This document shows, piece by piece, positions 9,604 to 38,066 of a stretch of 64,000 nucleotides of DNA (its first letter is position 1; each line of letters opens with the position of its first letter). The notes under the pieces are model-generated. The model had not been told where the DNA came from. It saw only the letters and a list, made by a program, of their open reading frames with translations, and ran no database searches. The stretch is taken from positions 64,001-128,000 of the forward strand of contig CAWIYV010000014.1 in assembly GCA_963840455.1 (NCBI GenBank), read 5' to 3'. The translations under genes were made by a program, and so were the position numbers. This DNA comes from Nitrospirota bacterium (GTDB lineage: Bacteria > Nitrospirota > UBA9217).

Positions 9604-9654
9604 TTTAACAAAATCAGGGAATAAGATATATCACATAAATATAAAGAATTATTC

Positions 9655-10613: not shown

Positions 10614-10662
10614 TTCATGGCCTTCATTCTCCGCCTGCGATCAAGAAAGGATTTCCAGCAAC

Positions 10663-11385
10663 GTGGCTCGAGATGTCAGGAACCTCCTCATCGTCGACAA
10701 CAGAGCGGCCTCGCTGTTCTACTGGGGTATGCTGCTGAAGCGGCTCGACTACAAGGTTGTGAGCAAGCGGAGCGCCGAAGAGGCCTTGAAGGCGCTCGAG
10801 GACTCGCGGCCGACGGTCGTGCTGACCGATGTCGCCCTTCCCGGCATGGACGGTGTTGCCCTGTTGAAAGCGATCAAGGAGGATCCGCGGTACCGGGACA
10901 TCCCGGTGGTCATGCTCGCCTCAACGGACGACGCGGCAACGAAGGATGCCTGCACGCGCCTGGGGTGCGCTGCCTGGTTCCCGAAGGACGTGGAGCCCGA
11001 TGACCTGTACCAGAAGCTCCAGTCACTCATCGAGACGACGCCGCGGTCGCACATCCGGCTGAACACCTCGGTGAAGGTGGTCGTAGGGGACGGTACGACG
11101 ATGGGCGGATCAGCGCGGACCGAGTTCGCGTCTGCCATCTCCGAGGGAGGCCTTTACGTGCGGACGCGGTACCCGCAGCCGCAGAACGCGCTCACACCGG
11201 TCCGGATCCTTCTTAACGGCATCGAGGTCCGGGCAAAGACCGTGGTCGTCTACAGCTATGCAAAGAACGAAGGCCCCTATAAGGAGCCGGGCATGGGCGT
11301 CAAGTTCGTCGAGATCTCCGACCAGGACCGGCGTCTCATCCGGACGTTCATCAATGAGCAGCTGACGAAAGATATCACGCACTGA
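10663..11385 (+). CDS. Response regulator receiver plus PilZ domain protein
   Basis: REC motifs LLIVDN, LTDVALPGMDG, IPVVML. PilZ motifs RSHIR, ISEGG, GMGVKF. Confidence 0.85.
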   Translation: MARDVRNLLIVDNRAASLFYWGMLLKRLDYKVVSKRSAEEALKALEDSRPTVVLTDVALPGMDGVALLKAIKEDPRYRDIPVVMLASTDDAATKDACTRLGCAAWFPKDVEPDDLYQKLQSLIETTPRSHIRLNTSVKVVVGDGTTMGGSARTEFASAISEGGLYVRTRYPQPQNALTPVRILLNGIEVRAKTVVVYSYAKNEGPYKEPGMGVKFVEISDQDRRLIRTFINEQLTKDITH

Positions 11386-11712
11386 TCCCGGCGTTGTCCG
11401 CGGCCCCCGGTCACCTGCTGCAACCGCTGCTTGCTCGTTTCCTGCGTGATATCGATAATCCTGAACACGACCTGAACCGCTGATGGGAACGCAGAAGAGG
11501 CGGATAACTGCGGATCTTTCCTCTGCAGGAAGTTGAAGCTCCCTGACGCAAGCTACAGGGAGTGCGCTCGCTCCTGGATGCATCCGGCGGGCGAATGTTT
11601 TGCTGTGGATCGTATCCGCTCTTATCACGATGGGAATCCCCTTCTGACCTGTCCGCATGCTTTTTCTCGCATAAGGACGATCGGTTGCACCATCAGCGTC
11701 AGAGGCGAAAGC

Positions 11713-12909
11713 ATGTTCCTTGCCGACATTGCAAAGAAGACCTGGATGATGGTCGTCGAGATCCTTTTCTCCTTCCGGAGGAACAACGACTTCGCGGCGG
11801 CCTCGTCGCTTGCCTTCTCGGCCATGCTCGCGATCATCCCTGCGCTCTTCCTTCTCACCGCGCTGCTTAGCCTTGCCATCGGGTCGTCGCAGGAAGCGTT
11901 CCGCAGGGTCCAGGAAATGGCCACACAGGTCATTCCGAGCTACAGCCAGGAGATCGTGAAGGAGGTCCAGTACATCACCCAGCACATCCGGACCTTCGGC
12001 GCGCTGAACATCCTGGTCTTTCTCTTCGCCGTGACTCCCCTGGTGTCCGACATGCGGAGCGCACTCGCTGCGATCTTCCGAAGCCATGCCGGCAGGCCGT
12101 ACCTGCTCGAAAAGCTCATCGACCTGGCCCTCACCGTCGTCTTCCTGCTGGGGATCACGGCCATCGCGGCGGCCGGCGTTGTATTTACGTTCGCAGAAAA
12201 ATGGCTCTACATCCCGAACCTGCCGGCCTACCTCAGCGGCGTCATGCAGTATGTGTTCATTGCGCTCGCCTTCTTCCTGCTGTACCTGGCATTCTCGCGG
12301 AAATTCCGACCGACGAACCTTGCGGTTGGGGCGCTCGCAAGCGGGGCGCTCTGGTATCTCATGGGGCCGCTGTTCTACATGTTCCTGGCCTATAACCCCG
12401 GCTACGGTCTTGCCTTCGGGTCCTTCAAGTCGCTTTTCGTGGTCATCATCTGGATCTATTATTCCTTCGTCGTTTTCCTGCTCGGGGCGGAGATCGCCAC
12501 CGTCCTGGAGCGGCGCGAGACGGTCTTCCTCAAGCACTTGATGGCGGGGAAGAAGGACCTCCCGGCAGCGGTCGCAGACCGTTTCATCACGCGGTATGCT
12601 CCAGGGGAAACGATCTTCACCGAGGGCGACGCGGGCGATGAGATGTTCTCCGTGCTGAAAGGGGCCGTCGCCATACGCAAGGGAGAGCGTGAGCTTTTCA
12701 GGATCGGCGCAGGCCAATACTTCGGCGTGGTCTCCTTCCTGCTTGCGACACCAAGGATCGCCGCAGCCGTTGCCGTGGAGGACGCGGAGCTGGTCGTGAT
12801 CACTCGGCAGAACATCACCAACCTGATGAACGAGTCGCCGGAGTTCATCCTCTCCATGCTGCGGGAGACCGCGCTGCGCCTGCGGGAGACGAACAAGCTG
12901 TTCGAGTGA
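11713..12909 (+). CDS. YihY/BrkB family membrane protein with C-terminal cNMP-binding domain
   Basis: AASSLAF..MLAIIP and GSF..L..IIWIYYS....LLGAE (YihY). IFTEGDAGDEMF.V.KG and G.G.YFG...PR (cNMP). ATG at 11713 preferred over the 11533 TTG. Confidence 0.85.
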   Translation: MFLADIAKKTWMMVVEILFSFRRNNDFAAASSLAFSAMLAIIPALFLLTALLSLAIGSSQEAFRRVQEMATQVIPSYSQEIVKEVQYITQHIRTFGALNILVFLFAVTPLVSDMRSALAAIFRSHAGRPYLLEKLIDLALTVVFLLGITAIAAAGVVFTFAEKWLYIPNLPAYLSGVMQYVFIALAFFLLYLAFSRKFRPTNLAVGALASGALWYLMGPLFYMFLAYNPGYGLAFGSFKSLFVVIIWIYYSFVVFLLGAEIATVLERRETVFLKHLMAGKKDLPAAVADRFITRYAPGETIFTEGDAGDEMFSVLKGAVAIRKGERELFRIGAGQYFGVVSFLLATPRIAAAVAVEDAELVVITRQNITNLMNESPEFILSMLRETALRLRETNKLFE

Positions 12910-22433: not shown

Positions 22434-25400
22434 CTATTTAAACTTAAAGGCAGCTTCATGGATGTTTCCGTCTCCCAAGGTGAGAACCATCGTTCTACAC
22501 TGACCAGCATAGGTCTTGGATGTCTTCCAGTTGAACTGCCAGTAACCATCACCTAAGTACTGCAACCCGGAAGAGCCCGCTGCATACTCTTCAATGGCGG
22601 TTGCTGCGTCTCCTGAAAGGCTGTTACAGTTGATCAGGTACGATGCTAAGTCCCTGAAACTGGCCGGATCAGAGATCGGCGCTCCGTTTGCGTCAGTGAT
22701 CCGCCATTTGACGGGGATGGCCTGGCCGGCCTTTGCACTATTCACGACCTGGGGATTGTCGACCGGACTGAAGAACCCATAAAAGATATTATTGGGTTCT
22801 GCGACCACAAAGGGAGAAAGGCTTGAAGTCACACCGCAAATGGCATGCGAGATCGTATTGACCGATGTGGTGATGTCTTGCCATGCGGAACCGTTGTAAT
22901 GGAAGAGCTTCAGGTTCTGCTCGTTGGCCGGATTGGACATCGTAGCCGGATCGTAGACGATGCAGACGGTGACCGGGCCCGAGAAGGACGCCGTCGTGGT
23001 GATATCATAGGACGCGCCGTTCAGCATCCTGAAATTCGAAGGCAAAGGTGACGCAAGCGTCGTTATTGCCGTTGCCGTCACCGTGCCTTCCGCGGACGTG
23101 ACGCTCGTGAAACTGAGGTTTACATCGGCCGTTGGCGCCGCCGTGACGTTGTCCCCGTACGGGACCGCGGTCGTTCCTGAATTGCCCGATTCCGCACCGC
23201 CGCTGCCCGCGAGGCTAATCGTGAGCATGGGGACGTCAGGATCATTGGACGGAATCGCGACACTCCCTGTTTTCGTGCCCTCGGATACGGGCATGAAGGC
23301 AACCTGGAATGTGCAGATTTTCGTCGGGGCGAGCGTAACGCCGGAGCAGCGATCATTGAGAATTGAGAAATCATCGCCGGTTTTGGAAAGCGCGCCGAGA
23401 GTGAGATCGGCAGTGCCGCTGTTGGACAGCATGAACGATCTGATCGATGACATGTCCACGACCACAACCCCGAAGTCTTTCATGAACGCGACAAGATTGA
23501 TGACGGCCCGATCTGAGGGAACAATGGCCGGCCCGGTCGCTTCGAGGATACCGTCGATGTTCGACACATCGGCATCGGCCGGTACTGTGACGACGGATGC
23601 GTTGTCCAGGTCTGCGCTCCCGCCGTAGAAACGCCTTGCATAGAGCTGCGTCACGTCAATCGTGCCGCCCGTGATGACGGGGGGAGAAGGCCTAAATAGC
23701 ACTTTGTAGCTCCCTGGTGGGATACCCATTGCTGTATAGGCTCCCGTCGTGTTTGTTGGGGCCGATGCAATGCTGATTCCGTTCGGGCCAAGCACAATCG
23801 CGTAAGCAACGACAGGAAGCCCGTCCCTGTTGCTGATTCTTCCGGAAATGATCCTTCCGGGGATCATGGTGGCGTTTATTCCTGCTGTGGTGTCAGGAGC
23901 GGTCACCGTCGCGTAGGCAACCTGGGTCACCAGATTCTGAGCAGGCAGTGACCCTATCACGCTGCTTGCTATGAAACGGAGCTTGTACGTGCCACTCGGG
24001 ACATGCTGGACCGTATAGTTGCCCGCGGCATCGGTCCACCCGGCATCTACTCCTTGCTCATCAAGATCAGCAACTCTTACAGCTACATTCGCCATCCCCG
24101 TACCGTTCGTGTCAATAACCCCGCCGGACACCTGTCCAAACGGCGGATATACTGCGTCAAGCCCAATCGTTGAACCTTCATTTACGGCTATCAGATCGGC
24201 GCTTGCCATGCTGTGTTTTTGGTTATACCACTGATTCGATGTAATAACAGAGCCACCACTTGTACCGAGTGGCACCGGCTGATTGTAGAACTGCTCGATA
24301 TACGTTCCGGGGACGATATTGCTGAACAGATAATTGCCAGAGCTGCTTGTAACTCCATATATGCACGAAGGCCAGGAACATGACGGGCTCTCGTATTCGC
24401 GCATCACGCGTACAAACGCATTGGCAACGCCTGCACCGAATGAATCGGTGATTGTTCCGTAGATTGTTCCGGTCCCCAGGGTTAGTCTGGAAAAATTCAC
24501 CGTGACCGCGCGGGCGCTGGTTATGGACACAGTACAGGCGGCACCGATCGCGGAATCGCACCCTGTCCATCCGCTGAACGTGCTGTCGGAAGCAGCTACC
24601 GCATTGAGCGTGACCATCATACCAATGCTAAATTCCTGCCTGCACGTGCCGGAACAGTTGTAGCCGGGAGTGAACGTTACCGTTCCTGATCCTCCAGATC
24701 CGCTGCCGCTCATGGTCAAGCTCAGATCGTAAGAATTGCTTGGCTCAAGATAAGCAAATGCCTGTCCCACGGCGTCGGCTGGCAGCGGGTTAAGCTGGAC
24801 CTGCTTAGAGATGTAGCCGGGGGCTGAAACAGTGAGAAGCACCGCATCATTGGGCGCAACATTGATGACCGTGTACAAGCATGTTCCGGTACCGCTGCTG
24901 CAAGGCGGGGTGTACGTGACAGGGTAAGAGCTGCCCGGATTCAGCGTGCTCGCCGCGTACACTATCGGGTTTTTGATATTTTGAGTAGTTCCGGCATCGA
25001 GCGCTTGTCCACGAAGGGCGACATATCCCGGATTGACGCCCCATCCCGATACATCCGCATCAGTATAGATAATACGGTTGCCAAGTACGATTGAGGACGG
25101 CGGGTTAATGTCCTGCGAGTACCAGGTCCGGAATCCGGTCTTACTGATCGAGTACGCGAAGGTGACGCTCTGGGGGACTGAGAGGACAAAGGTCCCGGTC
25201 GCATCGGTAACAGCCTGGTACGACGGACTTCCCACGACTATCACCTGTGCGCCGACAACGGGGTTCCTCGCTGTATCAATGACGGTCTGGGTAAGGGTGA
25301 CTGTAATGCTCGCCGGCCCGAAGGAGGCGCTGATCGTATGGTCCATCCGCACATCGGTGAAGAGATAGCTCGTTTGCGCTCCCTTTGATACGCCGTCAAC

Positions 25401-25640
25401 AAGAACATCCGTTACGGTGTAGCCCGGGTCCATGGTGATGGTGTAACCCTGGACTCCACCGGGGGCTACCGTGACTGTGCCAGTGGGAGAGATGCTGCCG
25501 CCCGAGTTGGTTACGGATGCCGATATAGTAAAGGCGCTCGCCGAAGAGGCAGAGAAGACTGCCGCGGATAAAAACAACACGGTAACAGCAAGTAATCCAA
25601 TTTTTGAGAATCTCATATGTCGTACTGTTTTGCCTCTCAT
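22434..25640 (-). CDS. Large secreted protein: InlB-B-like repeats, carboxypeptidase-regulatory-like domains, choice-of-anchor-D-like Ig domain, C-terminal PxKF domain
   Basis: Signal peptide and RBS AAGGAGG; GFFSPVDN...N.AKAG.AIPVKW...YQFNWKT-type C-terminus. Confidence 0.82.
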   Translation of the reverse strand: MRGKTVRHMRFSKIGLLAVTVLFLSAAVFSASSASAFTISASVTNSGGSISPTGTVTVAPGGVQGYTITMDPGYTVTDVLVDGVSKGAQTSYLFTDVRMDHTISASFGPASITVTLTQTVIDTARNPVVGAQVIVVGSPSYQAVTDATGTFVLSVPQSVTFAYSISKTGFRTWYSQDINPPSSIVLGNRIIYTDADVSGWGVNPGYVALRGQALDAGTTQNIKNPIVYAASTLNPGSSYPVTYTPPCSSGTGTCLYTVINVAPNDAVLLTVSAPGYISKQVQLNPLPADAVGQAFAYLEPSNSYDLSLTMSGSGSGGSGTVTFTPGYNCSGTCRQEFSIGMMVTLNAVAASDSTFSGWTGCDSAIGAACTVSITSARAVTVNFSRLTLGTGTIYGTITDSFGAGVANAFVRVMREYESPSCSWPSCIYGVTSSSGNYLFSNIVPGTYIEQFYNQPVPLGTSGGSVITSNQWYNQKHSMASADLIAVNEGSTIGLDAVYPPFGQVSGGVIDTNGTGMANVAVRVADLDEQGVDAGWTDAAGNYTVQHVPSGTYKLRFIASSVIGSLPAQNLVTQVAYATVTAPDTTAGINATMIPGRIISGRISNRDGLPVVAYAIVLGPNGISIASAPTNTTGAYTAMGIPPGSYKVLFRPSPPVITGGTIDVTQLYARRFYGGSADLDNASVVTVPADADVSNIDGILEATGPAIVPSDRAVINLVAFMKDFGVVVVDMSSIRSFMLSNSGTADLTLGALSKTGDDFSILNDRCSGVTLAPTKICTFQVAFMPVSEGTKTGSVAIPSNDPDVPMLTISLAGSGGAESGNSGTTAVPYGDNVTAAPTADVNLSFTSVTSAEGTVTATAITTLASPLPSNFRMLNGASYDITTTASFSGPVTVCIVYDPATMSNPANEQNLKLFHYNGSAWQDITTSVNTISHAICGVTSSLSPFVVAEPNNIFYGFFSPVDNPQVVNSAKAGQAIPVKWRITDANGAPISDPASFRDLASYLINCNSLSGDAATAIEEYAAGSSGLQYLGDGYWQFNWKTSKTYAGQCRTMVLTLGDGNIHEAAFKFK

Positions 25641-25872
25641 AGTGATCCTCCTTGATTCCTGGACTTTCAGCTGCTGAAAAGATTAAAGAGAATTTCTCTC
25701 GAACGTGCTGTCCGGCTTCATGAGCAGGGGGAGCCTTCCGGCTCTCCCTTGCCTGGACAGTATGTGGGCACCTTACTTCACATCACCTCCTTGTAAGTTA
25801 AAATATGCCTCCCTGTCTAGTCTCCTTTAAACTTAACAAAATAAATAGGCCGAGCACACCAAAGGCGTCAAC

Positions 25873-25953
25873 CTTCGGCAGCTCGGCCGTCTTGGTCTTT
25901 TAAGACCCGTCGCTTTCCGTCCCCCTCTCGCGAAGGGTTAGGCTTTATCGAGA
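25873..25953 (-). ncRNA. Cyclic di-GMP-I (GEMM-I) riboswitch
   Basis: Minus strand reads CGATAAAGCCTAACCCTTC-GCGA-GAGGGGGACGGAAAGCGACGGGTCT...AGACGGCCGAGCTGCCGAA, with a GNRA tetraloop and GACGGAAAGC core. Terminator GGCCGAGC...GCTCGGCC-TATTT overlaps the 3' end. Confidence 0.88.
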
Positions 25954-26131
25954 ATCAGGTATATTCAATCACAGGCTATAGACGTTGTCAATTTCCAAAA
26001 TTTGCAATTGTTCACTTTATTGCATTTATGTAAAGTGAAAATGAGAATGGAAAATTTACCTCGAATGCGAAAAACCTATACCAGACTTTGTGGAGCGAAA
26101 GTCTTTACGCTCGGAGCTGGTGTCTAGATCG

Positions 26132-26509
26132 TTACCGACCGTAGATATGGACGACCTCCATGGACCACAGCCCAAATAGAGCGCTCCATTGCTCCAGGTC
26201 GGCATAATAAATGTTTGTCATTCCGTGCTCTTTGGCCACCTGGCCCAGCCCATTATTGCCCACGCGGACACTCAGGACGCTCGTGAGAGGATAGTTGACC
26301 TGGGTGATCCGGCCCTTTCCTTCCATCACGCTGTTCTTTATGTCAGTAATTTCCCGGTTCACGGTAAGCGGTTGCACGGTATGGGAATAAAGGCCTCCCC
26401 GAAGAGTAAAGGTTGGCGAGTTAGCCGGTGTGCCGGGAGCCCGGAGCAGTGAGCAGCCGGTCAGGAACAGTATCATCACTGATAGCAGTACGATAAGCCT
26501 GATAAGCAT
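26132..26509 (-). CDS. TRL-like lipoprotein
   Basis: Lipobox LTGC, G.LYSHTV.PL, G...AK.HG...IYYAD and C-terminal YG. Confidence 0.7.
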   Translation of the reverse strand: MLIRLIVLLSVMILFLTGCSLLRAPGTPANSPTFTLRGGLYSHTVQPLTVNREITDIKNSVMEGKGRITQVNYPLTSVLSVRVGNNGLGQVAKEHGMTNIYYADLEQWSALFGLWSMEVVHIYGR

Positions 26510-26520
26510 GTCTTCCTCCG

Positions 26521-26817
26521 TCAGTCACCGTATACGATCGTCGTGACCCGGCTATAGAGACCGAACAGGATCACCTGCATTTCCCTGTCCATGTGCGTGA
26601 TTACCGTCACATCGCCGCTCCGGGCAGCGCGCGCTTGTCCCGCGTCTCCCCACGCAAAGAGCCACAGGATCGAGTACATGGATGACTCTCCCTGCTTATG
26701 TCCCAAATCGTTCTTGTTCAATTCCGTGCTCAAGGGCATCGTAACGTTAGTATAGATGCACCCGTTCGCAGCGAGCATAGTTGTCACGAGGACAATGATC
26801 GAGAAGAAGTGTTTCAT
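26521..26817 (-). CDS. TRL-like family lipoprotein
   Basis: NGCIYTNVT.P, K.GES...SILWLFAWGDAG...AA..G and T.VYGD. Confidence 0.8.
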   Translation of the reverse strand: MKHFFSIIVLVTTMLAANGCIYTNVTMPLSTELNKNDLGHKQGESSMYSILWLFAWGDAGQARAARSGDVTVITHMDREMQVILFGLYSRVTTIVYGD

Positions 26818-26988
26818 GTCTGCTCCTTTCCCACTACGCATCCGCTAATGCGCGCTGCATTTTCTGACAATCTCATGCGGCACATAAAATCACGAGTGAA
26901 TGCGATAATCAGGTTGATAACCACAGATCGCTTCGACCAGGGTAGTTGCATGCTTCAGGAAAAAGTCTATACAGCCGCTTATCGTGTG

Positions 26989-29900
26989 TCAATGCAGTTT
27001 TTCGATCAACTCTTTCACCGTCACGAACAGGTCTCCCACTATGGGGTGAACTCTCGGCGCAGGGCGTGTCTGGTTCAGCTTCATGAGCGGCGCCTCGGGG
27101 TCCTTATTGAAGCAGAGAACCTCGGCGCGCGTCCCGAGATAGTCTATGTGCTGCGGTGCGCCGGAGATCCCGAGGCAGATGATGAGCTTCGGGTTGACGC
27201 GCACGCCGGTCTGGCCGATCTGCGCATCCAGCGGGAGCAGCTTCAGGTCCTGCGTCACTTTCCGCGTTGCTCCGAACATCGGGGCAAGCCCCATCCCTTC
27301 CAGCATCTTTTTCAAATCATTCGCCAGCGCGATCCCTGACCCATCCTTGACGCCGTAGCCCAGGTCGATGATCACCTCTGCGCTCGACAGGGTCGGCGGG
27401 GCAGGCGGCGGGAGCGGTGTGGTCCAGTCCGGCCCTGCCTCGCTGTCGATCTCCACGACCGTGAACTTGTCCCGGGGTGCCTGTGCGGGTAGGTCTGCAT
27501 CGCTGCTCATGGTCAGTAACGCGCTCCCGTCCCGTACCCGTTCCTGCCTCACCAGCCTGCCGGCGTAAACGGGCACGTCGATGTTGAGTGATCCGTCGGC
27601 GTTCCGATCAACATGGCTGATGTTGGTCACGATGCGGATCCTGCTGCCTGCCTCCTGCCCGCCTGCTGTAGTCGCGATTGCATCGTTCCAGCTTGCCCCC
27701 GCGATGATCATAGGTTCGCCTGATCGGGTCATGATGAGCTTGAGGACCTGTTGCATGCCGAAGCGGGAGAGAGCCCCATCCCTGGTGTCAATACAGAAAG
27801 CTCTCTCAGCGCCGTTCGCTTGGGCGAGGCCGAGCAGGGAAGGCCAGCTCTCACGGGGCGCGGACACCAGGCAACAGGAGGTCTTGCCGAGGAGGTCGGC
27901 TGCGATGCGGCCGGCCCTGAGCGCGGCCAGGCCTCCTTTCCTATCAAGGGGATCAAGGATCGACCATACAACAGGTCCAGGTGCCAACTGCCCTTTTCCG
28001 ATGGTTCCTGCGTAGGTTTCTGTCCTTGCAGCACTCGCTAGGGCAGCATACTCTTTGAGAAATGTCGCAGCGTCCTTGACCGAAGTGATGGTCCTGGTCC
28101 CGGCTGTTTTGCGCGCAGGCCGGGCGAAACGAGGCAGGGGGGAAGGCACGCCCGAAGAGCTCATCACCGAGATGTTCCGGGAAAGTCCGGCCACGAGGTC
28201 GCTGATGCTTTGCCCCAGCGGCATTGATCCGGTGGAGATGCCAATGATCGACGGGGTAGAAACGCCGTCAATGCCCGATGGGTCGGACTTCGCCCTCATG
28301 CGGGGGACAGGCAGGTAGTGCCGCTTCAGGCCTCCCGCGAGGAACGGTGCAAGGCCATGGTCGCCGTTAAGAGATTCTGCGCCAAGGACAATGAGGTCAT
28401 AGTTCCCGTCGAGCTCCAGATCCTTCACGGCACCAACAAAGGCAGTGAACTCCGCGGGGTCCCGGTCAAGCCGGACAAGCCGGTCCGCTGTCGGGGCCGC
28501 GGACCTGAGCAGCTGCTCCCGTTCAGCTCCAGCCGGCATGAGCACATGGACGGTCACGTTCGTGCCGCTTGCGGCCTTGAGCGCCAGCGCCTGGTCCAGC
28601 CCCGACCGATCAAGAGGGTCGATCTCCCAGACAAGCTCGCTGATTGCCCCGTTGTCGAGCCGCGGAAGGGGCGAGAGAACGGGGACCGGCCGGATGATGG
28701 AGAGGATGCGGAGCGGTGCACTGACCGCGCCGACCGTTTCCTGTTCGGCCCGGTCTTTCTTCGCAGCACGGTCCAGGACAGCGTCTGCTGCCCGCACTTC
28801 AGGAGCATCGAGGTCCCGGGAGAGCTGCTGCCATGCAGGAGCGAAAGCCTGGTCGAGATGTCCCAATTTCGCCAGCGCGCGTTCAGCAGCGCGCTGACCG
28901 GCCTGCAGCAGGGGATCGACATAGGCCGGCCCGAGGAGGTCCCTGCGTTCCGCAAGCCATTCACAGCGGTAGAAGACGCATTCGAGCCGCAGGACCTCTC
29001 CGGCCATCTCGGCAAGGGGGAAGAGCGCGGGCTGCAGCATGGCATCGGACCACGCGGCATCGCCAAGCTGTTCCCGGGCGGCCAGAACGTGCTTTCGCAG
29101 CAGGTTCTTCCATGCGCTGAGCGTCATGGCAGCGGTGTCCTGCGGCCGTTCAAGGATGCGGTCCGGCAGCTCGGGCCAGTCCGCTGCCTGGCTGATCAGG
29201 TCCTTCAGGATGAGGAAGCGCTGGACCTCGTTGGTCCCTTCGTAGATGTTCAGGATGCGGGCGTCGCGCCGGGCCTTTTCGAGCAGATACTGCTCGGTCT
29301 GCCCCACGGGTCCGTAGGCCCGTTCGATGAGCGAGATGATCTCGTGAACGTCCTCAGAACAGACGTACTTGGCGATGGCCGACTCCATGCGGACCGATTC
29401 ATGGGGGCGGTCGAAGAGCCCGATCAAGTAATAGGCCAGGGACTCGCTTCCGAACTGGATGGCAGCGGCCTCGCCAAGAAGCCTGTCCCGGACCTCCGAT
29501 TGCGGCAGGGCCTGCGATGCCTCTGCCATGAGCTTCCGCGCCAGGGCGCCGGCAACGACCGCGAGGCCGCAGCGGCCCACGTTCAGGGTCTCGAGGGCGT
29601 TCACCTGTCCGTGGCCTTCGTAGCCGATGATCGCCTCGCGCGGCACGCGCACATTGTCCAGCGAGATCTCGTTGGTCGGAGAGCCGCGCTGGCCCATCTT
29701 GCGCTCGTCGGCGCCCACCTTCAGGCCTTCAGCATGGCGGTCCACCATGAAGCCTGTGACGCCTTCGGGCGTCTGAGCAAAGAGGCAGAACTGCGTTGCC
29801 AGGCTGCCGTTGGTGATCCACATCTTGGAGCCCGTGAGGCTGTAGTACGCGTAGTGGGGTCCGGTGCCCGTGGTCCGGACCTGGCCGATGTCATGGAACT

Positions 29901-32900
29901 CGCAGACCGTCCCCTGGTATTCGTAGGCGCGAACGCCTTCGTCCGTGCCGTAGTCGTAGCGGTCGTATCGGACCGGGACAAGTTTGTCGTCGGGCGTGCG
30001 ATAGGCCATGCCGTTGTCGGTGAAGGCGATGCGGTCTGCGTCGATGAGATAGCGTTTGCACTTGTCGAGCTCTCCAGTCGGCGAGAACGCGTACCGTCCA
30101 TCGGGCAGGGGCGAGAGCATGGCGATCCTGAGCACGGCCATGGTCTTGACGCCGCCGGAGTCAGAGCCTGCGGTCGGCTCGGTCAGGGCAAAGGCGCTGA
30201 CGCCGCCGTGGCCGAGGTTCCGCAGAAAGAGCTTGTGTGCCCGCTCCCGCCGAGGAAGTTCGTCGAGGCCGTCGCGGACATCAGGCATGATGCGCTCGAA
30301 GAGCTCTGCGGCATGGACAAGGTTCGTCATGAACCCGCCGAAGTCGCCGCGTTGACCTGCGATGCCAGCTCCGTAGAAGGAGCGCAGGAAACCGGCCGAG
30401 AGATACTTGACGACGCGCGTGCGGCGGATGCGGTCGTCGACAAGCCTCATGATCGCGCTGTACTCCTTCCGCACCCATCGGGGGTTCGGGTTCCTGAACG
30501 ACGACACTAGGCGCCTGATGCGCGAACCGATCTCGCCAAGCCGCTTCGGGTCATGGACGAGCGGGGTGAGCTCTTCCCGCACACGGGGGAGCTCATCCTC
30601 CAGCCCCAGCAGCACCGGCGTGGTGCCGATGCTCGTGCTGGCCATGATCAGCAGGCAGACAGCGGCGTCGCCGAAGCTGCCCGAGGCTGAGTTCAGGACA
30701 TAGTACCCGGCCTTGCGCCAGCCCAGGCCGTCCTCGGCCTTGGGAACGTAGGTGGCGAGCCACCTGTTCTGCTTCACTGCAGCGATGACCTCGTCCGGCA
30801 GGTTATGGATCTGCTCCACGTACCGTTCGAAGTGCATTCCTTCGAAGCTCCTGCCGCCTGCATTCGCCTTGAACCAGTCCACGAGGCCGCGCCATTGCTG
30901 CCGGAGCTTCGGGTCATGGAGCTGCATCTCCGGCACATAGCGCGGCGAGCGGTCGAAGATCGAAACGAGAAAGGTCCCTGAACGGTGAGGCCTGCCCGGC
31001 CGGTTGCAGAAGTGTTCGTAGTCCTGGCCCAGATCGACGGCAGCGATGTCCGGGGCAGGGGGGGAGACCGCGGCAGGCGATACGCGTCCGCTGCCTGCTG
31101 ACAGCGCGGCTTTCCTGACAGCCTTTTCGGCAAGTCCGAGCAGGACCTCGACTGAAGCAGCCTCCTGCTCCATGCTCCTGCCAGCGTTAAGACCCGCTTC
31201 GACAACGACAAGCAGACCGCGTATGTCGAGCAGCAGCGCGGCTGCATCACCGGACGCGTGAGCATCAGCCCCCGCCGGCATGCTGTCATAGCCGGACTGC
31301 ACCGCGTTCCACTGTTTCACGAGAGACGCAAGAGGCGCTCCGCTGATCTTGGAAAAGCTGCCGAGCTCGGCCGAAAGAGTCTTCGTGAGATCAGCTCCTG
31401 CCAGGCCGGCATGAAGGGCGGACGACGCACCATATCCTGGTGCAAGGAACCGGAAAAGTGCGCTGTCGCGGTAGAAGCGCGCGAGGAGGTCGTCCTCGGA
31501 GAAGGCGAAGCCTCCGAAGACCTGGCCTGCGTCGTAGGCCATGCATCCGGGCTCAGGACCGAAGGCCATGGCAGCCGTTGCCGCGCATAAAGCATCGAAC
31601 TCGGGAGATGTTGCACCGTGCGAACGCCGGGCAACGCGGTACAGTGTTTCGAGCAGCAGCGTCCACGCCTCAATGCGGCTGACGAGCGCCTTGACCGCGC
31701 CGAGCTTGGCGATGCCGTCGCGGCCCTGGGTGTCGAGCATCTGGCCGGGGAACTGGACCCTGCCTGCGGCATGCTCCCTGGCGCGGCGCGAGAGGTAGTC
31801 GCCTGCGCCGAGAGCAATGGCGAGATAGGAGGCGGCGTCAAGCTCCTCGGTGTCCCGGATCGGGAAGCGGTCCTGCTTGCTCAGCGTGCAATTGAGCTCG
31901 ATCCGTGAGAGGCCTGCTGCCCGGAATCCAATGGCCGGCGCTGGCGTGATCTTGACCCCGGCTGCTGTGAAGGGCAGGATATACGCCGTGCCCCCGGCGA
32001 CCAGCAGAAGGGCCGTTGACGCGGCTGCAGGCACGAGCTCGATCGAGCCAATGATCGTGACGCCTCCGCTGCTCTCCCTGAGGACCATGTGTTCGCCGCT
32101 CACAAGACAGGCGCCGGGAATTCCGTCCCGTCCTGCCTGCTGAAGGGCCTTTGTTGCGGCCATCTGTTGGGCCGCGATCAGGCCGAGGGCAGGGCTGACC
32201 GATGCCAGCGCCCTGATGGCGGGGCGGGCGGGATGAAGATGCTCCGCGATGAACTGCCTGAGCTTCGTTGCCCACTCATCCGGCATGGGCCCGTCCTCCC
32301 ATTGCTTCACCACGCGGTCAGGGAAGATCGCCGCGACCTCTTGGGCGAAAATGATCGGATCGCTGGTCTCAGCCTTCTTGCTCGGCGTTATCGCTGTCCA
32401 GGAACGGAGCTCCTGCTCAAGCCGCGAGACAGCGTAGAGCGCATGGAACATCCTGCCTTCAGCAAGCCTTGTGCCGATGTCGGCCTTCTCGTCCCTGATC
32501 TCTTGGGCCAGGTCCGGCCGTTCATCCACACCGAGAGCCGTCTCCAGCAATGTCATCTTCTCGATCAGCCGTTCGCCGAGCTGCCGGGGCCAGGACATCC
32601 TTCCGGCGCTGACCGATGCGGGAAGGTCCGCGACGCCGGCGCAAAACGCGGCAATGGCGTTCAGGACCGACGCGATAGCGGCAGTGATGTCCTCGTTCAG
32701 GTACCATCGTTTTCGGTCGATCACCTGCGGCTGTTCGATCGCAGGTTCCTTTGCCGCGTTCCGCTTCAGCGATCCGAGAAGTCCGTCGATCGCCCCGCTT
32801 TCGGGCCGGTAGATGAGGCGGTGGTCCGTAAACCTCCCCCAGAGCACCCCGGCCGGCTCGGCGCGCCAGCAGGACTCGCACTTGATGCAGTTCTCCCAGT

Positions 32901-34869
32901 TGATCGTCACGTTCCCGCGGCCGGCAAGAGGGGCGTCGTAGGCATAGACGCGGGCAGGGCAGACCCACCACAGGGCGGAGCGGGCCATGTCAGGGTGCGA
33001 GGCAACGGGGATCGGCCAAAGCGTCCTGATGTGGGAGACGCTCCCCACATGGTAGGTGTTCGTGGCAAGTTTCGTTTCGAGGCCTGCGACCGGTCTCACC
33101 GCATCGAGGTCCCGCGCCTTTCGCAAAGCTTCCTGGTAGGCCATGACCGGTTCGGCAAGCATCTTCTCCACCGGCGTCTTCAATATATAATAGCGGAAGG
33201 CGTCCCAGACAGCAGTGCCTGCGGCAATGGCGGCAAGAGTAAGCCCGTAAAGCGGAAGAACGACAAGGTCGATCACGCTGATGGACCGGACCAGGATGCG
33301 CACTGCATCGGCAAGCTTTGCTTCTACCGGCTCTGCATTGTTGGCATAGACCGCAGAGATCGCCTGGGCCAAAGCAGGCGACAGCCTCGATACCAGGCTC
33401 CCCACGGGCCAGGGGAGCGATGCGGGATCGAGCCTCCTGCCGCTCACGTTCATGATGATGTCAAGCCGCGCGTCCCCACGGCTCTTCCCCTTCAGCGCGT
33501 TCCGGAGCCAACTGCCGATCGTCGCGGGATGAATGAGCTGTGCGAGGAGATGCTTCCCGAGCCTGAGGCTGGCGATCGATGAGAAGGTGTCGGAGACCAG
33601 CTCCTTCAGGGCCCGCGGAGAGAACAGATGTCCGCGGAGGTACCGGCTGGTGTCCACAAGGCTGCCGGCTGCGAGGAACCGGGCAGTGCCGCAGAGGATA
33701 TCGGGGGTCCTGCCGAAGAGCACGCGCGACCTGCCGAAATAGGCCGGCCATTGCGCAAGGTGACGAGCGTTCGTGCCGTACACGCTGTCCCTGAGGGGGG
33801 CGACGTACGACTCGCTCAGGTGCTTCGCGTTCAAGGGTTTGCCCTCTCGCAGGAGCGACTTCACGGCGCGGGCAAAGTACAGGCCAGTTGCCGAGGCAGG
33901 GCCGGTGAAGTTAGGGAAAGGGAGATCGATGCCGAGCCCCGCGGACGCGCCGCCCACGGCGAGCCCGTCCTCGACGAGCTTCGGCCGCTCGCGCCATCCG
34001 CCGCTCCGGATGATCCTGGTGCCGTAGGCGGACAGCGACCCGTCCCGGCACAGGTCAGCGATTGCCGGCATAGTACGAAGCCTTTCGAAGATCCGGTCAT
34101 GGTCGCCGCGGTAGTGCTTTTTCAGATTTTCCAGCGGGACCACGTAGCCGAGCGAGAGGCTGTCGCGGTTCGTGTAGAGGAATGCGCCGATGTTCAGCCC
34201 CGCGGTCCTGCCGGCTATGGCCGGGTTCCGTACCAGGACCTCGTACGCCGCGCCCTCGCTCCGGCCCAGGCGGAACCGTTCGTCAATGTCCCGCGCAGGG
34301 AGCGAGAGAACGGCCTTGACGCCCTGGAGGTAATGGGGATCGGGGACCCGCTCGAGGCGTTCGGAGCGCACAAGATGGGACGCGTCGCCCTCGGCGATGA
34401 ACACGACCCCGGCATGGAGCGATCCGCGGCCGGTCTGGACGCCGATGACCTGTCCGTTCTTCCTGATGAGGGACAGGACCGTGGTCCGCGTTATGAGCGC
34501 GGCGCCTTTTAAGCGGGCGAGGTCGGCGAAGTAGGGATCATAGACCGGGCGGAGGACCGTGTAGCAGTTCTCGAAGGCACGCGGATCGGACAGTGCCACG
34601 CCCACCTCGTCGATGCCGTTGTGCGCCAGGGTCCCGCGGCGGACCACGCGTCGCTCGAAGGGCGCGGCCTCCACGGCTGCATGGCCGAAGCACTCCTCCG
34701 AGGCGAGGCTGTCGGCGAAGTACACGCAGCCGGACCAGTTCTCAGCGCCGGCGTACACCGCTGTCTCGAGCAGCGCAACGGAGATGCCGCTCCCGGCCAA
34801 AGCGCCGGCCGCGGTCACCCCAGCGGGCCCTGCGCCGACGATGACGACGTCATACTGGTAGGTCTTCAT
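26989..34869 (-). CDS. 2626-aa fusion: FixC/ETF-QO-like flavoprotein, FixX-like ferredoxin, degenerate ACAD, intact ACAD, ETF-beta, ETF-alpha
   Basis: In order: DVVIVGAGPAG; VCPARVY..WENCIKCESC; GRVQF..AGQVFGG; FALTEP.AGSD, GSKMWITNG, KMGQRGSPT, IYEGTNEVQR; ETF-beta-like IDPLD; QIGQTG..V.P.L....GISGAPQH..NKDPEAP. Confidence 0.9.
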   Translation of the reverse strand: MKTYQYDVVIVGAGPAGVTAAGALAGSGISVALLETAVYAGAENWSGCVYFADSLASEECFGHAAVEAAPFERRVVRRGTLAHNGIDEVGVALSDPRAFENCYTVLRPVYDPYFADLARLKGAALITRTTVLSLIRKNGQVIGVQTGRGSLHAGVVFIAEGDASHLVRSERLERVPDPHYLQGVKAVLSLPARDIDERFRLGRSEGAAYEVLVRNPAIAGRTAGLNIGAFLYTNRDSLSLGYVVPLENLKKHYRGDHDRIFERLRTMPAIADLCRDGSLSAYGTRIIRSGGWRERPKLVEDGLAVGGASAGLGIDLPFPNFTGPASATGLYFARAVKSLLREGKPLNAKHLSESYVAPLRDSVYGTNARHLAQWPAYFGRSRVLFGRTPDILCGTARFLAAGSLVDTSRYLRGHLFSPRALKELVSDTFSSIASLRLGKHLLAQLIHPATIGSWLRNALKGKSRGDARLDIIMNVSGRRLDPASLPWPVGSLVSRLSPALAQAISAVYANNAEPVEAKLADAVRILVRSISVIDLVVLPLYGLTLAAIAAGTAVWDAFRYYILKTPVEKMLAEPVMAYQEALRKARDLDAVRPVAGLETKLATNTYHVGSVSHIRTLWPIPVASHPDMARSALWWVCPARVYAYDAPLAGRGNVTINWENCIKCESCWRAEPAGVLWGRFTDHRLIYRPESGAIDGLLGSLKRNAAKEPAIEQPQVIDRKRWYLNEDITAAIASVLNAIAAFCAGVADLPASVSAGRMSWPRQLGERLIEKMTLLETALGVDERPDLAQEIRDEKADIGTRLAEGRMFHALYAVSRLEQELRSWTAITPSKKAETSDPIIFAQEVAAIFPDRVVKQWEDGPMPDEWATKLRQFIAEHLHPARPAIRALASVSPALGLIAAQQMAATKALQQAGRDGIPGACLVSGEHMVLRESSGGVTIIGSIELVPAAASTALLLVAGGTAYILPFTAAGVKITPAPAIGFRAAGLSRIELNCTLSKQDRFPIRDTEELDAASYLAIALGAGDYLSRRAREHAAGRVQFPGQMLDTQGRDGIAKLGAVKALVSRIEAWTLLLETLYRVARRSHGATSPEFDALCAATAAMAFGPEPGCMAYDAGQVFGGFAFSEDDLLARFYRDSALFRFLAPGYGASSALHAGLAGADLTKTLSAELGSFSKISGAPLASLVKQWNAVQSGYDSMPAGADAHASGDAAALLLDIRGLLVVVEAGLNAGRSMEQEAASVEVLLGLAEKAVRKAALSAGSGRVSPAAVSPPAPDIAAVDLGQDYEHFCNRPGRPHRSGTFLVSIFDRSPRYVPEMQLHDPKLRQQWRGLVDWFKANAGGRSFEGMHFERYVEQIHNLPDEVIAAVKQNRWLATYVPKAEDGLGWRKAGYYVLNSASGSFGDAAVCLLIMASTSIGTTPVLLGLEDELPRVREELTPLVHDPKRLGEIGSRIRRLVSSFRNPNPRWVRKEYSAIMRLVDDRIRRTRVVKYLSAGFLRSFYGAGIAGQRGDFGGFMTNLVHAAELFERIMPDVRDGLDELPRRERAHKLFLRNLGHGGVSAFALTEPTAGSDSGGVKTMAVLRIAMLSPLPDGRYAFSPTGELDKCKRYLIDADRIAFTDNGMAYRTPDDKLVPVRYDRYDYGTDEGVRAYEYQGTVCEFHDIGQVRTTGTGPHYAYYSLTGSKMWITNGSLATQFCLFAQTPEGVTGFMVDRHAEGLKVGADERKMGQRGSPTNEISLDNVRVPREAIIGYEGHGQVNALETLNVGRCGLAVVAGALARKLMAEASQALPQSEVRDRLLGEAAAIQFGSESLAYYLIGLFDRPHESVRMESAIAKYVCSEDVHEIISLIERAYGPVGQTEQYLLEKARRDARILNIYEGTNEVQRFLILKDLISQAADWPELPDRILERPQDTAAMTLSAWKNLLRKHVLAAREQLGDAAWSDAMLQPALFPLAEMAGEVLRLECVFYRCEWLAERRDLLGPAYVDPLLQAGQRAAERALAKLGHLDQAFAPAWQQLSRDLDAPEVRAADAVLDRAAKKDRAEQETVGAVSAPLRILSIIRPVPVLSPLPRLDNGAISELVWEIDPLDRSGLDQALALKAASGTNVTVHVLMPAGAEREQLLRSAAPTADRLVRLDRDPAEFTAFVGAVKDLELDGNYDLIVLGAESLNGDHGLAPFLAGGLKRHYLPVPRMRAKSDPSGIDGVSTPSIIGISTGSMPLGQSISDLVAGLSRNISVMSSSGVPSPLPRFARPARKTAGTRTITSVKDAATFLKEYAALASAARTETYAGTIGKGQLAPGPVVWSILDPLDRKGGLAALRAGRIAADLLGKTSCCLVSAPRESWPSLLGLAQANGAERAFCIDTRDGALSRFGMQQVLKLIMTRSGEPMIIAGASWNDAIATTAGGQEAGSRIRIVTNISHVDRNADGSLNIDVPVYAGRLVRQERVRDGSALLTMSSDADLPAQAPRDKFTVVEIDSEAGPDWTTPLPPPAPPTLSSAEVIIDLGYGVKDGSGIALANDLKKMLEGMGLAPMFGATRKVTQDLKLLPLDAQIGQTGVRVNPKLIICLGISGAPQHIDYLGTRAEVLCFNKDPEAPLMKLNQTRPAPRVHPIVGDLFVTVKELIEKLH

Positions 34870-35041
34870 GGGATGTTCCCCTGTGATGCCACGGTCGATG
34901 ATAGATGAAGCGTAAGGAAGGCGATGCTACGTGTTCGCAGTGCAATTATATCAGAATGGCCAGGGACAAACCAGACGGCACCGGCTTTCCTGTCGTATTG
35001 GGAAATCTGATACAATATGCGCAGGAAGGAGGATCTGTGAT

Positions 35042-35620
35042 ATGAAAGAGGCACGGAAGTTCGACCCCCGGAGCCTGGATGTCCTGAACAGCCCCGAACG
35101 GTTCGACCGGGAGAACCCCGATATCATCTGGAAGGAACTGGACCTGAAGGAACCCCGGGTCCTCGTCGATATCGGGGCAGGCACGGGGTTCTTTGCGATC
35201 CCCTTCGCACGCAAGAGCCCTCACATCACGGTCCATGCCTGCGACCTCCAGGACGAGATGCTGCACTGGCTTCGGGAGCATCTGCCCGAAGACCTGCGAA
35301 TGCGGATCATCCCCGTGAAGATGGAAGAACGCAGGGTGCCGCTTCCCGACGGCATCGCCGACCTCGTGTACATGATCAACCTGCACCATGAACTTGAGGA
35401 CCGGGACGCGATCATGAAAGAATGCTTCCGGCTCTTGAGACCTGGCGGCACAGTGATGGTAGCGGACTGGAAGAAGGGGGAGACGCCAGTGGGGCCGCCG
35501 CAGGAGATCAGGGTGACGGAGCAGGAGATCGTTGCGGACCTCCGGCGGGCGGGATACCGGGACATCACGGACCACCCGGTGCTGCCGTACCATAATTTCG
35601 TCACGGGGAAGAAACCGTAG
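35042..35620 (+). CDS. Class I SAM-dependent methyltransferase
   Basis: VDIGAGTG, D.V.MINL.HE and R.LRPGG...ADWKK..GPP. Confidence 0.9.
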   Translation: MKEARKFDPRSLDVLNSPERFDRENPDIIWKELDLKEPRVLVDIGAGTGFFAIPFARKSPHITVHACDLQDEMLHWLREHLPEDLRMRIIPVKMEERRVPLPDGIADLVYMINLHHELEDRDAIMKECFRLLRPGGTVMVADWKKGETPVGPPQEIRVTEQEIVADLRRAGYRDITDHPVLPYHNFVTGKKP

Positions 35621-36808: not shown

Positions 36809-37972
36809 TCATCGTCGCGTGAGCGCGCGGTTGGAAAGCTCCTCTTCCAGAAGCCCCATGCGGAAGCGCAGCAGCAGGTCGCTGAAGGGCCTCTTCAAGA
36901 AGGGGTCTTCCGCCAAGCCGACCAGGTGGGCCTGGCAGCCGCAATCTGAACTGCCGAACCCCGGAACGTGCCATTCCGCGATGCCTGACAGCGCCCCCGC
37001 GATCTCGCATTCAATATCAGCACTCGTCCTGATGGGAATGCCGGCGATGTATTCCGCATGCTCCCGCAGGTAATCGATGTGCCAGTGATGGTTCTTGATG
37101 AGCCGCTGGTGCCGGGCCAGCCGCTGCGTCAGGTTCTTCATGGCTGAGCCCACGTAGAGATAGTATCCCCTCCGGAACTTCAATTCTCCCAGTCCGCCTA
37201 CCGTAATCCTCCGGTCCCGCGGCAGCTGCAGCACCACGATGTAGCTCCCCCGGTCATGGGATTCCCGCTCCACCAAGTCCCAGGGTATCGTCAGCTCCCG
37301 TGTCACAGTACCCAGCGACAGGTCCTGCTTCCATTCCACGGAAACCGCCTTGACCATGACCCGGTCCTTGACCTGCAGGAGTGCGCGACAGAACTCGAGG
37401 TCCGTATGGTGCTCGGGCATGAACCATGTGGCAGCCGGCGAATGAACGATGAAGAGCACGGCTGCGCCGCAGCCCGTTCGGGAGAGCTCTTCCAGCTCGA
37501 TCAGATGCTTCGTGGCGCGCGCAGAGACGGCGTCAGGGAACATGGCGAGTGTCCGGTTGAAGAGCGTGCAGGATTTCACTTCGAGCACCATCTCGCGTCC
37601 GTCCTTCTGCAGGAGAAAGTCGAACCGGCTTTTGCCCACCTGGTGTTCTGCCTTGATGATCTCCGCGCCTTCGAGGCCGGGGATACGGCCCTCCTCGATC
37701 AGGTTACGGGCGACCAGGTTGTTGGCATGCGTATGGAGCATGACGGGACAGCCGTCGCGCTCCACGGCAATGATGAGGTGATCCAGCTTCCGCTGTGGTG
37801 AACGGGGCAGTCTCTGGAGAAAGAGCTTCACGCCGGGGAAGAACAGCTCCCAGAGCCTGCCGGGGTTCGGGAGATAGGCGCGGACCTTCCGGCCGTTGAC
37901 AAGGCACTGGACAACGAAGCGGTTGGGCCGGGAGAGGAATGTCGCGGGGAGAATATTATCGAAGAGCTTCAC
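36809..37972 (-). CDS. sfsA: SfsA nuclease fused to DUF123/GIY-YIG-like domain
   Basis: RPNRF, LPNPGRL.EL, SRFDFLL, EVKSCTL, FPDA.S.R..KHL; then GSY...GYYLYVGSA..RL.RH..HWHIDYL..GFGSSDC.C..HL. Confidence 0.88.
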   Translation of the reverse strand: MKLFDNILPATFLSRPNRFVVQCLVNGRKVRAYLPNPGRLWELFFPGVKLFLQRLPRSPQRKLDHLIIAVERDGCPVMLHTHANNLVARNLIEEGRIPGLEGAEIIKAEHQVGKSRFDFLLQKDGREMVLEVKSCTLFNRTLAMFPDAVSARATKHLIELEELSRTGCGAAVLFIVHSPAATWFMPEHHTDLEFCRALLQVKDRVMVKAVSVEWKQDLSLGTVTRELTIPWDLVERESHDRGSYIVVLQLPRDRRITVGGLGELKFRRGYYLYVGSAMKNLTQRLARHQRLIKNHHWHIDYLREHAEYIAGIPIRTSADIECEIAGALSGIAEWHVPGFGSSDCGCQAHLVGLAEDPFLKRPFSDLLLRFRMGLLEEELSNRALTRR

Positions 37973-38066
37973 CTTGCCATAGTAACCGAACAGGGCAGCT
38001 TTGTCATCAAGTCTGCCACGGAGACGGGGAGGATAGGGAAGGATGCCCTTTTGCATCGCACTTCAG

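Follow-up and report, generated by a model that had tools for sequence, protein, structure and literature searches.

The fused gene and its relatives

The window analyzed here is a stretch of 64,000 nucleotides from a Nitrospirota genome (lineage UBA9217; GenBank assembly GCA_963840455.1, contig CAWIYV010000014.1, positions 64,001 to 128,000 of the forward strand), and its subject is a giant gene on the minus strand that codes for a protein of 2626 amino acids (aa). The gene begins with ATG and is listed as one unbroken open reading frame (ORF) whose translation under table 11 has no internal stop codon, as the initial annotation of this DNA had read it. An open frame under table 11 leaves no call for a frameshift, for recoding, or for an alternative genetic code, and these readings were rejected. 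The G+C content is 63–65% in the gene versus about 50–55% in both flanks, and a scan for promoters and terminators gave no signal exceeding that of shuffled sequences.

From N- to C-terminus the protein comprises a FixC/ETF-QO-like flavoprotein (ETF, electron-transfer flavoprotein; ETF-QO, ETF-quinone oxidoreductase), a one-cluster FixX-like ferredoxin, a pseudo-acyl-CoA dehydrogenase (pseudo-ACAD), an intact ACAD that ends in a helical tail, an EtfB-like module, and EtfA (Table 1). The same six modules, in this order and at positions close to ours, had been proposed in the initial annotation; family and profile scans of the domain boundaries, structure prediction, and residue conservation all upheld the layout. 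Pfam matches follow one another accordingly, with a flavin adenine dinucleotide (FAD) Rossmann domain at aa 5–170, a weak ETF-QO iron–sulfur (FeS) match at aa 636–668, a weak ACAD N-domain at aa 1350–1420, the ACAD middle and C-terminal domains at aa 1672–1740 and 1753–1890, ETF at aa 2080–2182, and the EtfA FAD domain at aa 2494–2575. All NCBIfam scores lie far under the equivalog cut-offs, which makes each module a divergent representative of its family. The best sequence matches among solved structures are 7koe_C, the FixC of T. maritima EtfABCX (1.9e-32), VLCAD/ACAD9 (about 1e-30), and ETF-alpha (about 1e-13).

Table 1. Features of the giant gene in window coordinates (aa numbering from the ATG start)
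Feature	Position	Strand	Basis
Whole gene, 2626 codons plus stop	26989..34869; stop codon 26989-26991	-	ORF listing, translation, full-length relatives
FixC/ETF-QO-like FAD (quinone-reducing) module, aa 1-~450; GxGxxG aa 12-17	33520..34869	-	NCBIfam, PDB sequence search, Foldseek, conservation
Family-specific helical insert between FixC-like and ferredoxin modules, aa ~451-624	32998..33519	-	AF2 helices, outside the 445-column FixC match
Conserved hydrophobic helix, aa 534-556, candidate monotopic membrane anchor	33202..33270	-	hydropathy, AF2 helix, conservation
FixX/ETF-QO-type ferredoxin module, aa ~625-690; C637, C661, C664, C667	32800..32997	-	invariant Cys, Pfam in relative P0112
Pseudo-ACAD, aa ~720-1260; RxQF aa 1037-1040, QxFGG aa 1116-1120	31090..32712	-	profile search, AF2, conservation, predicted interface
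Intact ACAD, aa ~1340-1895; TEPTAGSD 1563-1570, WITN 1684-1687, Glu1877 codon 29239-29241	29185..30852	-	Pfam, NCBIfam, PDB search, AF2, conservation
Helical extension after ACAD, aa ~1896-2050	28720..29184	-	VLCAD alignments, conserved positions
EtfB-like module, aa ~2052-2290, weakly conserved, degenerate nucleotide motif	28000..28716	-	PF01012, profile matches, conservation
EtfA-like module, aa ~2297-2626	26992..27981	-	CarE and human ETF-alpha profile matches, PF00766, conservation
EtfA domain II (binds electron-transfer FAD), aa ~2490-2626, strongly conserved	26992-27402	-	conservation

A length-matched protein search returned 203 matches at E<=1e-3 among 8000 candidates scored. The initial annotation had named homologs occurring only as separate genes as grounds for abandoning a fusion; instead, 88 of the 120 matches listed cover at least 97% of the query, with identities of 33–91%. 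Named sources of the listed matches are Nitrospirota, Nitrospiria, Leptospirillia, and one "Betaproteobacteria" metagenome-assembled genome (MAG), with Acidobacteriota for the remote forms, and the relatives carry generic annotations such as "acyl-CoA dehydrogenase family protein" or "ETF-quinone oxidoreductase". The module order is unchanged in remote relatives of 2478–3026 aa. Among 41 related genomes, 11 encode the whole protein in one open frame of 2615–2721 aa, others being interrupted at contig ends. Because most of the listed relatives are near full length and single open frames are found in many related genomes, the fused gene is, on these sequences, not an assembly artefact, and its conservation rules out chance or chimera. 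An alignment of 32 sequences, used for all conservation counts below, has a mean column identity of 60%.

The pseudo-ACAD segment served as a specific probe for the family, giving 151 matches at E<=1e-3 among 1.84 billion cluster representatives, 72 of them at 1e-30 or better. Of 150 listed representatives (clustered at 50% identity), 34 are 2219–2894 aa long, and in each the pseudo-ACAD match falls in roughly the same place. The phylum was also sampled evenly with 151 genomes, of which 25 contain the segment; these belong to only 2 of 22 families: 17 of 27 members of family f1 plus the window's own genome, and all seven members of family f5. A motif scan of genome contigs used a pattern common to ordinary ACADs, and most of its 80 loci were irrelevant, only two (L001 and L002) being full length. 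Contigs from four runs of four studies covered 26 to 30 of 30 gene bins, in pieces of at most ~1.2 kb, none of which spans the gene. Among the sequencing runs listed for the gene, none is of RNA.

Three divergent arrangements were also encountered. In relative G016 (L095, G016:C14:168094-186073) the homolog is broken into three frames (1643, 305, and 720 aa), two TGA codons interrupting the matched stretches, and may be a pseudogene, a sequencing error, or a case of recoding. Relative G010 (L096, G010:C2:128903-141191) keeps only aa 1–495 and 2414–2625, in adjacent frames of 518 and 219 aa, representing either a large internal deletion or a minimal version made of FixC and the ETF head. In a Balneolaceae MAG (L034 8817-16037, plus strand; also L012), adjacent separate ORFs of 256, 324, 459, 100, 392, and 402 aa together match aa 1–2625 at ~28% identity; judged from ORF sizes and the span of the tblastn matches, these resemble an operon of unfused genes with its own order, etfB-etfA-fixC-fixX-acd-acd.

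Flavin, iron–sulfur, and acyl-CoA dehydrogenase modules

NCBIfam FixC-type models match aa 3–399 (4.7e-46 and 3.5e-41), at scores so far under their equivalog cut-offs that the module must be regarded as a divergent member. AlphaFold2 (AF2) models covered aa 1–700, from a 14-row alignment, and aa 700–1899. The N-terminal model (pLDDT 79, pTM 0.82) is confident to about aa 600, and Foldseek placed 7koe_C at the top of its matches (E 3.7e-27, TM 0.79 on target, 445 columns), followed by ETF-QO 2gmh (4.6e-18). G12, G14, P15, A16, and G17 of the GxGxxG motif are each invariant (32/32), and the module thus has the FAD Rossmann domain, the nucleotide motif, and the overall fold of the FixC/ETF-QO group. 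The quinone-site family PF21162 (ETFQO_UQ-bd) was matched under its cut-off (E 0.087, 13.8 bits).

C637, C661, C664, and C667 of the ferredoxin module are likewise each conserved in 32/32 sequences and would supply the four ligands of a [4Fe-4S] cluster found in FixX/ETF-QO FeS domains. They are the only invariant cysteines in aa 625–690, where a two-cluster FixX would have eight; the module therefore has cysteines enough for one predicted [4Fe-4S] cluster, as in ETF-QO. The Fer4_ETF_QO match (PF05187) is weak in this protein (E 0.026) and falls over the cut-off, at 33.9 bits and in the same place, in the remote full-length relative P0112.

The insert between these two modules is modeled as helices with pLDDT >90 up to aa ~600; hhalign found no match for aa 420–625, and an Atlas search with aa 440–625 found no usable one. 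Within it, hydropathy peaks at aa 534–556, for the protein itself as well as for the family average (2.21 over 19 aa), coinciding with a hydrophobic helix in the AF2 model (H534-562), and D534 and D556 are invariant. We infer that this helix may be a monotopic membrane anchor. A true transmembrane pass was rejected, as it would place the FixC FAD and the FeS cluster on opposite sides of the membrane, and a secreted or periplasmic location was rejected as the N-terminus is a FAD Rossmann fold.

The intact ACAD matches PF00441 at 66.2 bits and PF02770 at 58.2 bits, both over cut-off, and the ACAD N-domain at 14.5 bits, under cut-off. TEPxAGSD, WITN, and YEGTNE, the last including the base Glu1877, are conserved in 32/32 sequences; these are the FAD motifs and catalytic Glu expected of an ACAD. 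The module has an enlarged N-terminal helical domain and a beta-domain insert of ~80 aa between TEPTAGSD (1563–1570) and GSKMWITNG (1680–1688). Alignments with VLCAD continue to aa 1956, into the helical extension, and the tail itself (aa 1900–2060) gave no match by hhalign. At the position of RxQFG, these alignments give a gap and variable residues, and the columns vary within the family; the intact ACAD thus has no counterpart of this motif.

Assignment of the upstream module to the ACAD fold draws on several weak but consistent lines of evidence. The AF2 model of aa 700–1899 (pLDDT 71, pTM 0.54) shows the order helix bundle, beta domain, helix bundle twice, with pLDDT of ~80–90 in the pseudo-ACAD. 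All top Foldseek matches of this 1200-aa middle model are ACADs, the output giving no query ranges, so that the first half is not assignable from this search alone. In a profile search of the PDB with the pseudo-ACAD, the top four matches are all ACADs (E 7.5e-4 to 1e-2), in register at the RxQFG-like and GG...YRD motifs, and 12 of 14 family members match PF00441 in this segment at E<=1, the best at 1.3e-5. The column equivalent to the catalytic Glu (1143) holds Glu in 1/32 sequences, and aa 900–1010 show nothing resembling TEPxAGSD or WITN. Because the catalytic Glu and its own FAD motifs are missing, the upstream module is, as judged from its sequence, a putative pseudo-enzyme. R1037, Q1039, F1040, Q1116, F1118, G1119, and G1120 are nevertheless each invariant (32/32).

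In ordinary ACAD dimers, the RxQFG and GG motifs contact the FAD of the partner subunit. The two modules of the giant protein show complementary decay, the pseudo-ACAD retaining exactly the motifs that would meet the FAD loop of the intact ACAD. A predicted complex of aa 1340–1899 plus FAD with aa 912–1259 scored 0.86 in three runs versus 0.00 for the best of three controls, passing a mark that 58 of 80 solved complexes attain, as do 2 of 110 mismatched pairs. Between runs, at least 96% of the contacts agree, partner pLDDT is at least 84, and the predicted interface brings aa 1566–1570 (the TAGSD loop), W1684, and aa 1876–1881 (the YEGT helix) of the intact module against aa 1038–1041 (VQFP), Q1116, and aa 1119–1120 of the pseudo-ACAD. 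The conservation pattern and the predicted complex together support a pairing in which the pseudo-ACAD would complete the FAD site of the intact ACAD, as in ACADs of the alpha2beta2 type. In one such enzyme, ChsE4-ChsE5, isoalloxazine, Glu, and substrate are all reported to sit in the alpha subunit, with the ADP-ribose of FAD contacted by the beta subunit (PMC11153573).

At the C-terminus, a profile of aa 1900–2626 matched EtfA chains over aa ~2297–2626 (CarE 6.4e-25, human ETF-alpha 2.8e-23, FixB 4.8e-19) and EtfB chains over aa ~2052–2280; the EtfB segment alone matched 4kpu_B (9.4e-16) as well as 5ol2_B and 7koe_A. PF00766 (60.7 bits) and PF01012 (29.1 bits) are both over cut-off, so that EtfA and EtfB, the two components of an ETF, are both represented. 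Conservation is uneven across this part. The head domain (aa 2490–2626) is among the best conserved parts of the protein, with R2536, GQTG, and SGAPQH invariant, and the two base domains are among the least conserved.

Proposed function and alternatives

The genome containing the window has 14 contigs totalling 4.03 Mb and a completeness rating of 100%. PF00441 has only two matches in it, the giant gene and a 385-aa ACAD that belongs to a cluster for fatty-acid synthesis (plsX, fabH, acd, etfB, ferredoxin-fused etfA, fabD, fabG, fabF), and the only Fer4_ETF_QO match lies inside the giant gene. A fadD-fadA-fadB operon (L098, G000:C14:213000-228000, 6748-12292, minus strand) codes for an acyl-CoA synthetase of 592 aa, a thiolase of 427 aa, and a FadB-type hydratase/dehydrogenase of 743 aa. 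Because this operon is without an ACAD, the only other ACAD lies in the fab cluster, and there is no other ETF-QO FeS domain, the giant protein probably supplies the dehydrogenase step that the operon wants. Two MqnA/D-type (futalosine-type) genes suggest that the quinone acceptor would be menaquinone.

In the fab cluster (L097, G000:C14:548000-560000), ORFs 4937-6127, 6153-6944, and 7032-8189 on the minus strand code for the 385-aa ACAD, EtfB, and EtfA with an N-terminal 2x[4Fe-4S] ferredoxin domain. From its gene content this trio looks like a candidate ETF-linked enoyl reductase. In many relatives, too, matches to ACAD and EtfA lie about 2 kb from each other.

Across the 151-genome sample, a FadB-like match extending past the dehydrogenase half was found in 25/25 carriers of the giant gene versus 3/126 non-carriers (G009, G100, and G110), eight further non-carriers matching the dehydrogenase half alone. 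Eight genomes of the window's own family, 96–100% complete, are without both the giant gene and a FadB-like gene. We treat this co-occurrence as a lead, a pattern to which no statistic is attached, produced by few gain and loss events among kin that are not independent.

Based on these observations, we consider it probable that the giant protein is a single-chain acyl-CoA:quinone oxidoreductase, with menaquinone as the likely acceptor, that would perform the FadE, ETF, and ETF-QO steps of beta-oxidation in one polypeptide. The initial annotation had proposed a covalently wired chain from acyl-CoA through ETF and an FeS/FAD unit to quinone, and the family scans, profile searches, structure prediction, and conservation support it. 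What the sequences give directly is the domain content, and each step of the electron path is our inference from it. Acyl-CoA would be oxidized at the intact ACAD by the base Glu1877, its FAD site being completed in cis by the pseudo-ACAD upstream, comparable to the beta subunit of an alpha2beta2 enzyme. Electrons would then pass singly to the FAD of the C-terminal EtfA head, mounted on a degenerate EtfB/EtfA scaffold without a second, bifurcating FAD. The head may swing to the single [4Fe-4S] cluster of the FixX-like module, which would reduce the FixC-like FAD; this FAD would in turn reduce quinone at the membrane, with the conserved hydrophobic helix as a hold.

Several points weigh against this proposal. 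The substrate and the acceptor are deduced, and acyl-CoA oxidation with menaquinone is thermodynamically tight. The ferredoxin module is modeled at pLDDT ~30, and its Pfam match in this protein is under cut-off. The best sequence score behind the pseudo-ACAD assignment is the weak 7.5e-4, and an internal hhalign comparison of aa 700–1300 with aa 1300–1900 was not significant (E 0.44). The predicted complex may reflect the model's memory of solved ACAD dimers, and it was computed with a custom 14-row alignment and with the ligand present, unlike the calibration set. The co-occurrence with FadB comes from two families of dependent kin and a few losses within families. Finally, no conserved neighbor gene was found among the nine loci compared, where the giant gene appears to stand alone, so that its context gives no direct link to a pathway.

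A first alternative keeps the same chain and has the ACAD act on something other than straight-chain fatty acyl-CoA; the acyl group might, for instance, be branched, cyclic, or bound to a carrier protein. The unusual architecture of the ACAD, with its ~80-aa insert and enlarged N-domain, the NCBIfam scores far under equivalog cut-offs, and the presence of cyclohexanecarboxyl-CoA and prolyl-carrier dehydrogenases among the relatives matched are all compatible with this. The best ACAD matches, however, are of the VLCAD, ACAD9, and FadE type, and the co-occurrence with FadB and the want of a second candidate ACAD for the fadDAB operon in the genome also speak for fatty acyl-CoA; we regard a different substrate as unlikely.

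Still less likely, in our judgment, is operation of the same wiring in reverse, as a (mena)quinol-dependent enoyl-CoA reductase serving as an electron sink or in the synthesis of lipids or storage compounds. All carriers are reversible in principle, the genome has futalosine-type menaquinone genes, menaquinone is reducing enough relative to the enoyl-CoA/acyl-CoA couple, and the Bcd- and Car-type ACADs among the matches act as reductases. Against this direction, the giant gene tracks the set of FadB, thiolase, and acyl-CoA synthetase and not the fab cluster, which has an ACAD-EtfBA of its own.

The initial annotation had also left room for bifurcation. A bifurcating or confurcating FixABCX-type machine with an added acyl-CoA site would fit the origin of the closest solved FixC, which comes from the bifurcating EtfABCX of T. 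maritima, and the best EtfA and EtfB profile matches, CarE and 4kpu_B, which are bifurcating ETFs. Other observations weigh against it. The Arg of the RPxFGG motif falls on column 2432, in the register taken from the CarE alignment, and this column holds L12 V4 M4 T3 K3 I2 S2 Q2, with Arg in 0/32 sequences. This Arg is reported to be essential in T. maritima EtfABCX, where changing it abolished ferredoxin reduction (PMC10734219), and a conserved Arg is described as the only charged residue near each flavin (PMC8958531). At the RxGV site, the hidden Markov model alignments begin just past the motif, and extending the 7koe_A alignment without gaps puts L/I-x-E-L there; no confident alignment was obtained for the GxxSPTxV region. 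The EtfB nucleotide motif is half kept, variable, and poorly conserved, no part of the protein is less conserved than the base modules, and there are cysteines for one FeS cluster, not two. We conclude from these sequence features that the ETF base would be a scaffold without a bifurcating FAD. Because the RPxFGG Arg is missing in 32/32 sequences, bifurcation is unlikely, and a bifurcating machine appears to us the most improbable of the three alternatives considered so far.

That the gene does not encode a real single protein, and is instead a chimeric assembly, adjacent genes read through as one, or a pseudogene in decay, we regard as a negligible prospect: contig pieces too short to span the gene and the broken homologs of G016 and G010 could be read that way, but the same 2.6-kaa frame recurs in independent assemblies from many sources, in the long cluster representatives, and in the 11 genomes with intact frames, and catalytic and cofactor residues are invariant across all modules.

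A more specific version of the acyl-CoA:quinone oxidoreductase proposal has, in our estimate, about even chances. It describes a membrane-anchored acyl-CoA:menaquinone oxidoreductase that would form a complete respiratory input in one chain, with a tethered head moving between the ACAD/pseudo-ACAD pair and the FixCX-type reductase and no diffusible ETF, and that would act as the only FadE/ETF-QO in Nitrospirota lineages of the aerobic chemolithoautotroph type.

In the window, the giant gene is followed directly downstream (22434-26841, minus strand) by a pair of small TRL-like (lipoprotein-type) ORFs, 106 and 125 aa long, and by a 1068-aa protein with CarboxypepD_reg and Ig-like repeats, none of which is kept beside the giant gene in other genomes. 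In divergent orientation, a class I methyltransferase with a weak UbiE/COQ5-type match (34931-35620, plus strand) adjoins the giant gene in two of the nine loci compared. Farther along, a 415-aa ORF (36809-38056, minus strand) joins SfsA, with its OB and nuclease-like domains, to a DUF123 domain.

Electron pick-up by ETF and delivery to ETF-QO or FixCX rely on transient complexes and a swinging head domain, which are difficult to capture. In a natural fusion the stoichiometry is fixed at 1:1:1, which would make the full path from ACAD-FAD through the electron-transfer (ET) FAD and the [4Fe-4S] cluster to the quinone-reducing FAD accessible in one particle, and, if the proposal is correct, the whole route from ACAD to quinone, including the swing of the head, could be imaged in a single particle. 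In the fusion, the pairing of one live and one dead ACAD also takes the form of an internal arrangement that resembles a duplication. For Nitrospirota lineages usually seen as lithoautotrophs, the fusion points to an ability to oxidize fatty acids, and, as the giant gene tracks fadB in the phylum, its presence or absence could mark that ability.

Comparison with known systems

The initial annotation knew of no characterized six-module version, and our full-text literature search, with subscription journals and supplements outside its scope, likewise found no published description of such a fusion. Partial fusions have been published, namely EtfB-EtfA and ferredoxin-EtfA (PMC12042025). SaETF of Sulfolobus acidocaldarius resembles the giant protein's C-terminal portion in having EtfB followed by EtfA in one chain; it is reported as a stand-alone bifurcating ETF with two FADs (PMC12042025), whereas the giant protein's ETF is the C-terminal part of six modules and is without the bifurcating-FAD Arg.

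The T. maritima EtfABCX/FixABCX complex (PDB 7KOE) shares with the giant protein a FixC-type FAD/quinone module, a FixX-type ferredoxin, EtfB, and EtfA, and among solved structures its FixC ranks first in sequence as well as in fold. The complex is reported to be membrane associated and menaquinone using, with two [4Fe-4S] clusters in EtfX (PMC10734219). It differs in having four separate subunits, two clusters, a NADH-oxidizing bifurcating FAD, and no ACAD, whereas the giant protein is one chain with four cluster cysteines only, no Arg at the bifurcating-FAD position in any of the 32 sequences, and two ACAD modules between the ferredoxin and ETF parts.

For the ACAD pair, the closest parallels are the alpha2beta2 steroid ACADs ChsE4-ChsE5 and ChsE1-ChsE2, whose reported division of labor (PMC11153573) matches the conservation pattern and predicted interface found here. 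These are encoded by two separate genes, whereas the giant protein fuses the pair in cis within a larger chain. VLCAD and ACAD9 are the best ACAD sequence matches, and the alignment extends ~65 residues past the core into their extra C-terminal helical region; VLCAD, however, is a homodimer with both sites active and a separate ETF.

In its predicted path the giant protein most resembles the mitochondrial and proteobacterial system of ACAD, ETF, and ETF-QO (PDB 2GMH, 1EFV, 1T9G), with the same cofactors, namely ACAD-FAD, one ET-FAD, one [4Fe-4S] cluster, and a quinone-reducing FAD. Among fold matches of the N-terminal part, ETF-QO comes second, and human ETF-alpha is a strong match to the head domain. 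The ETF base of the giant protein appears degenerate by comparison, and its FixC part is nearer to FixC than to ETF-QO. The mitochondrial and proteobacterial pathway uses three diffusing proteins made from four gene products, whereas the giant protein tethers all of them in a single chain.

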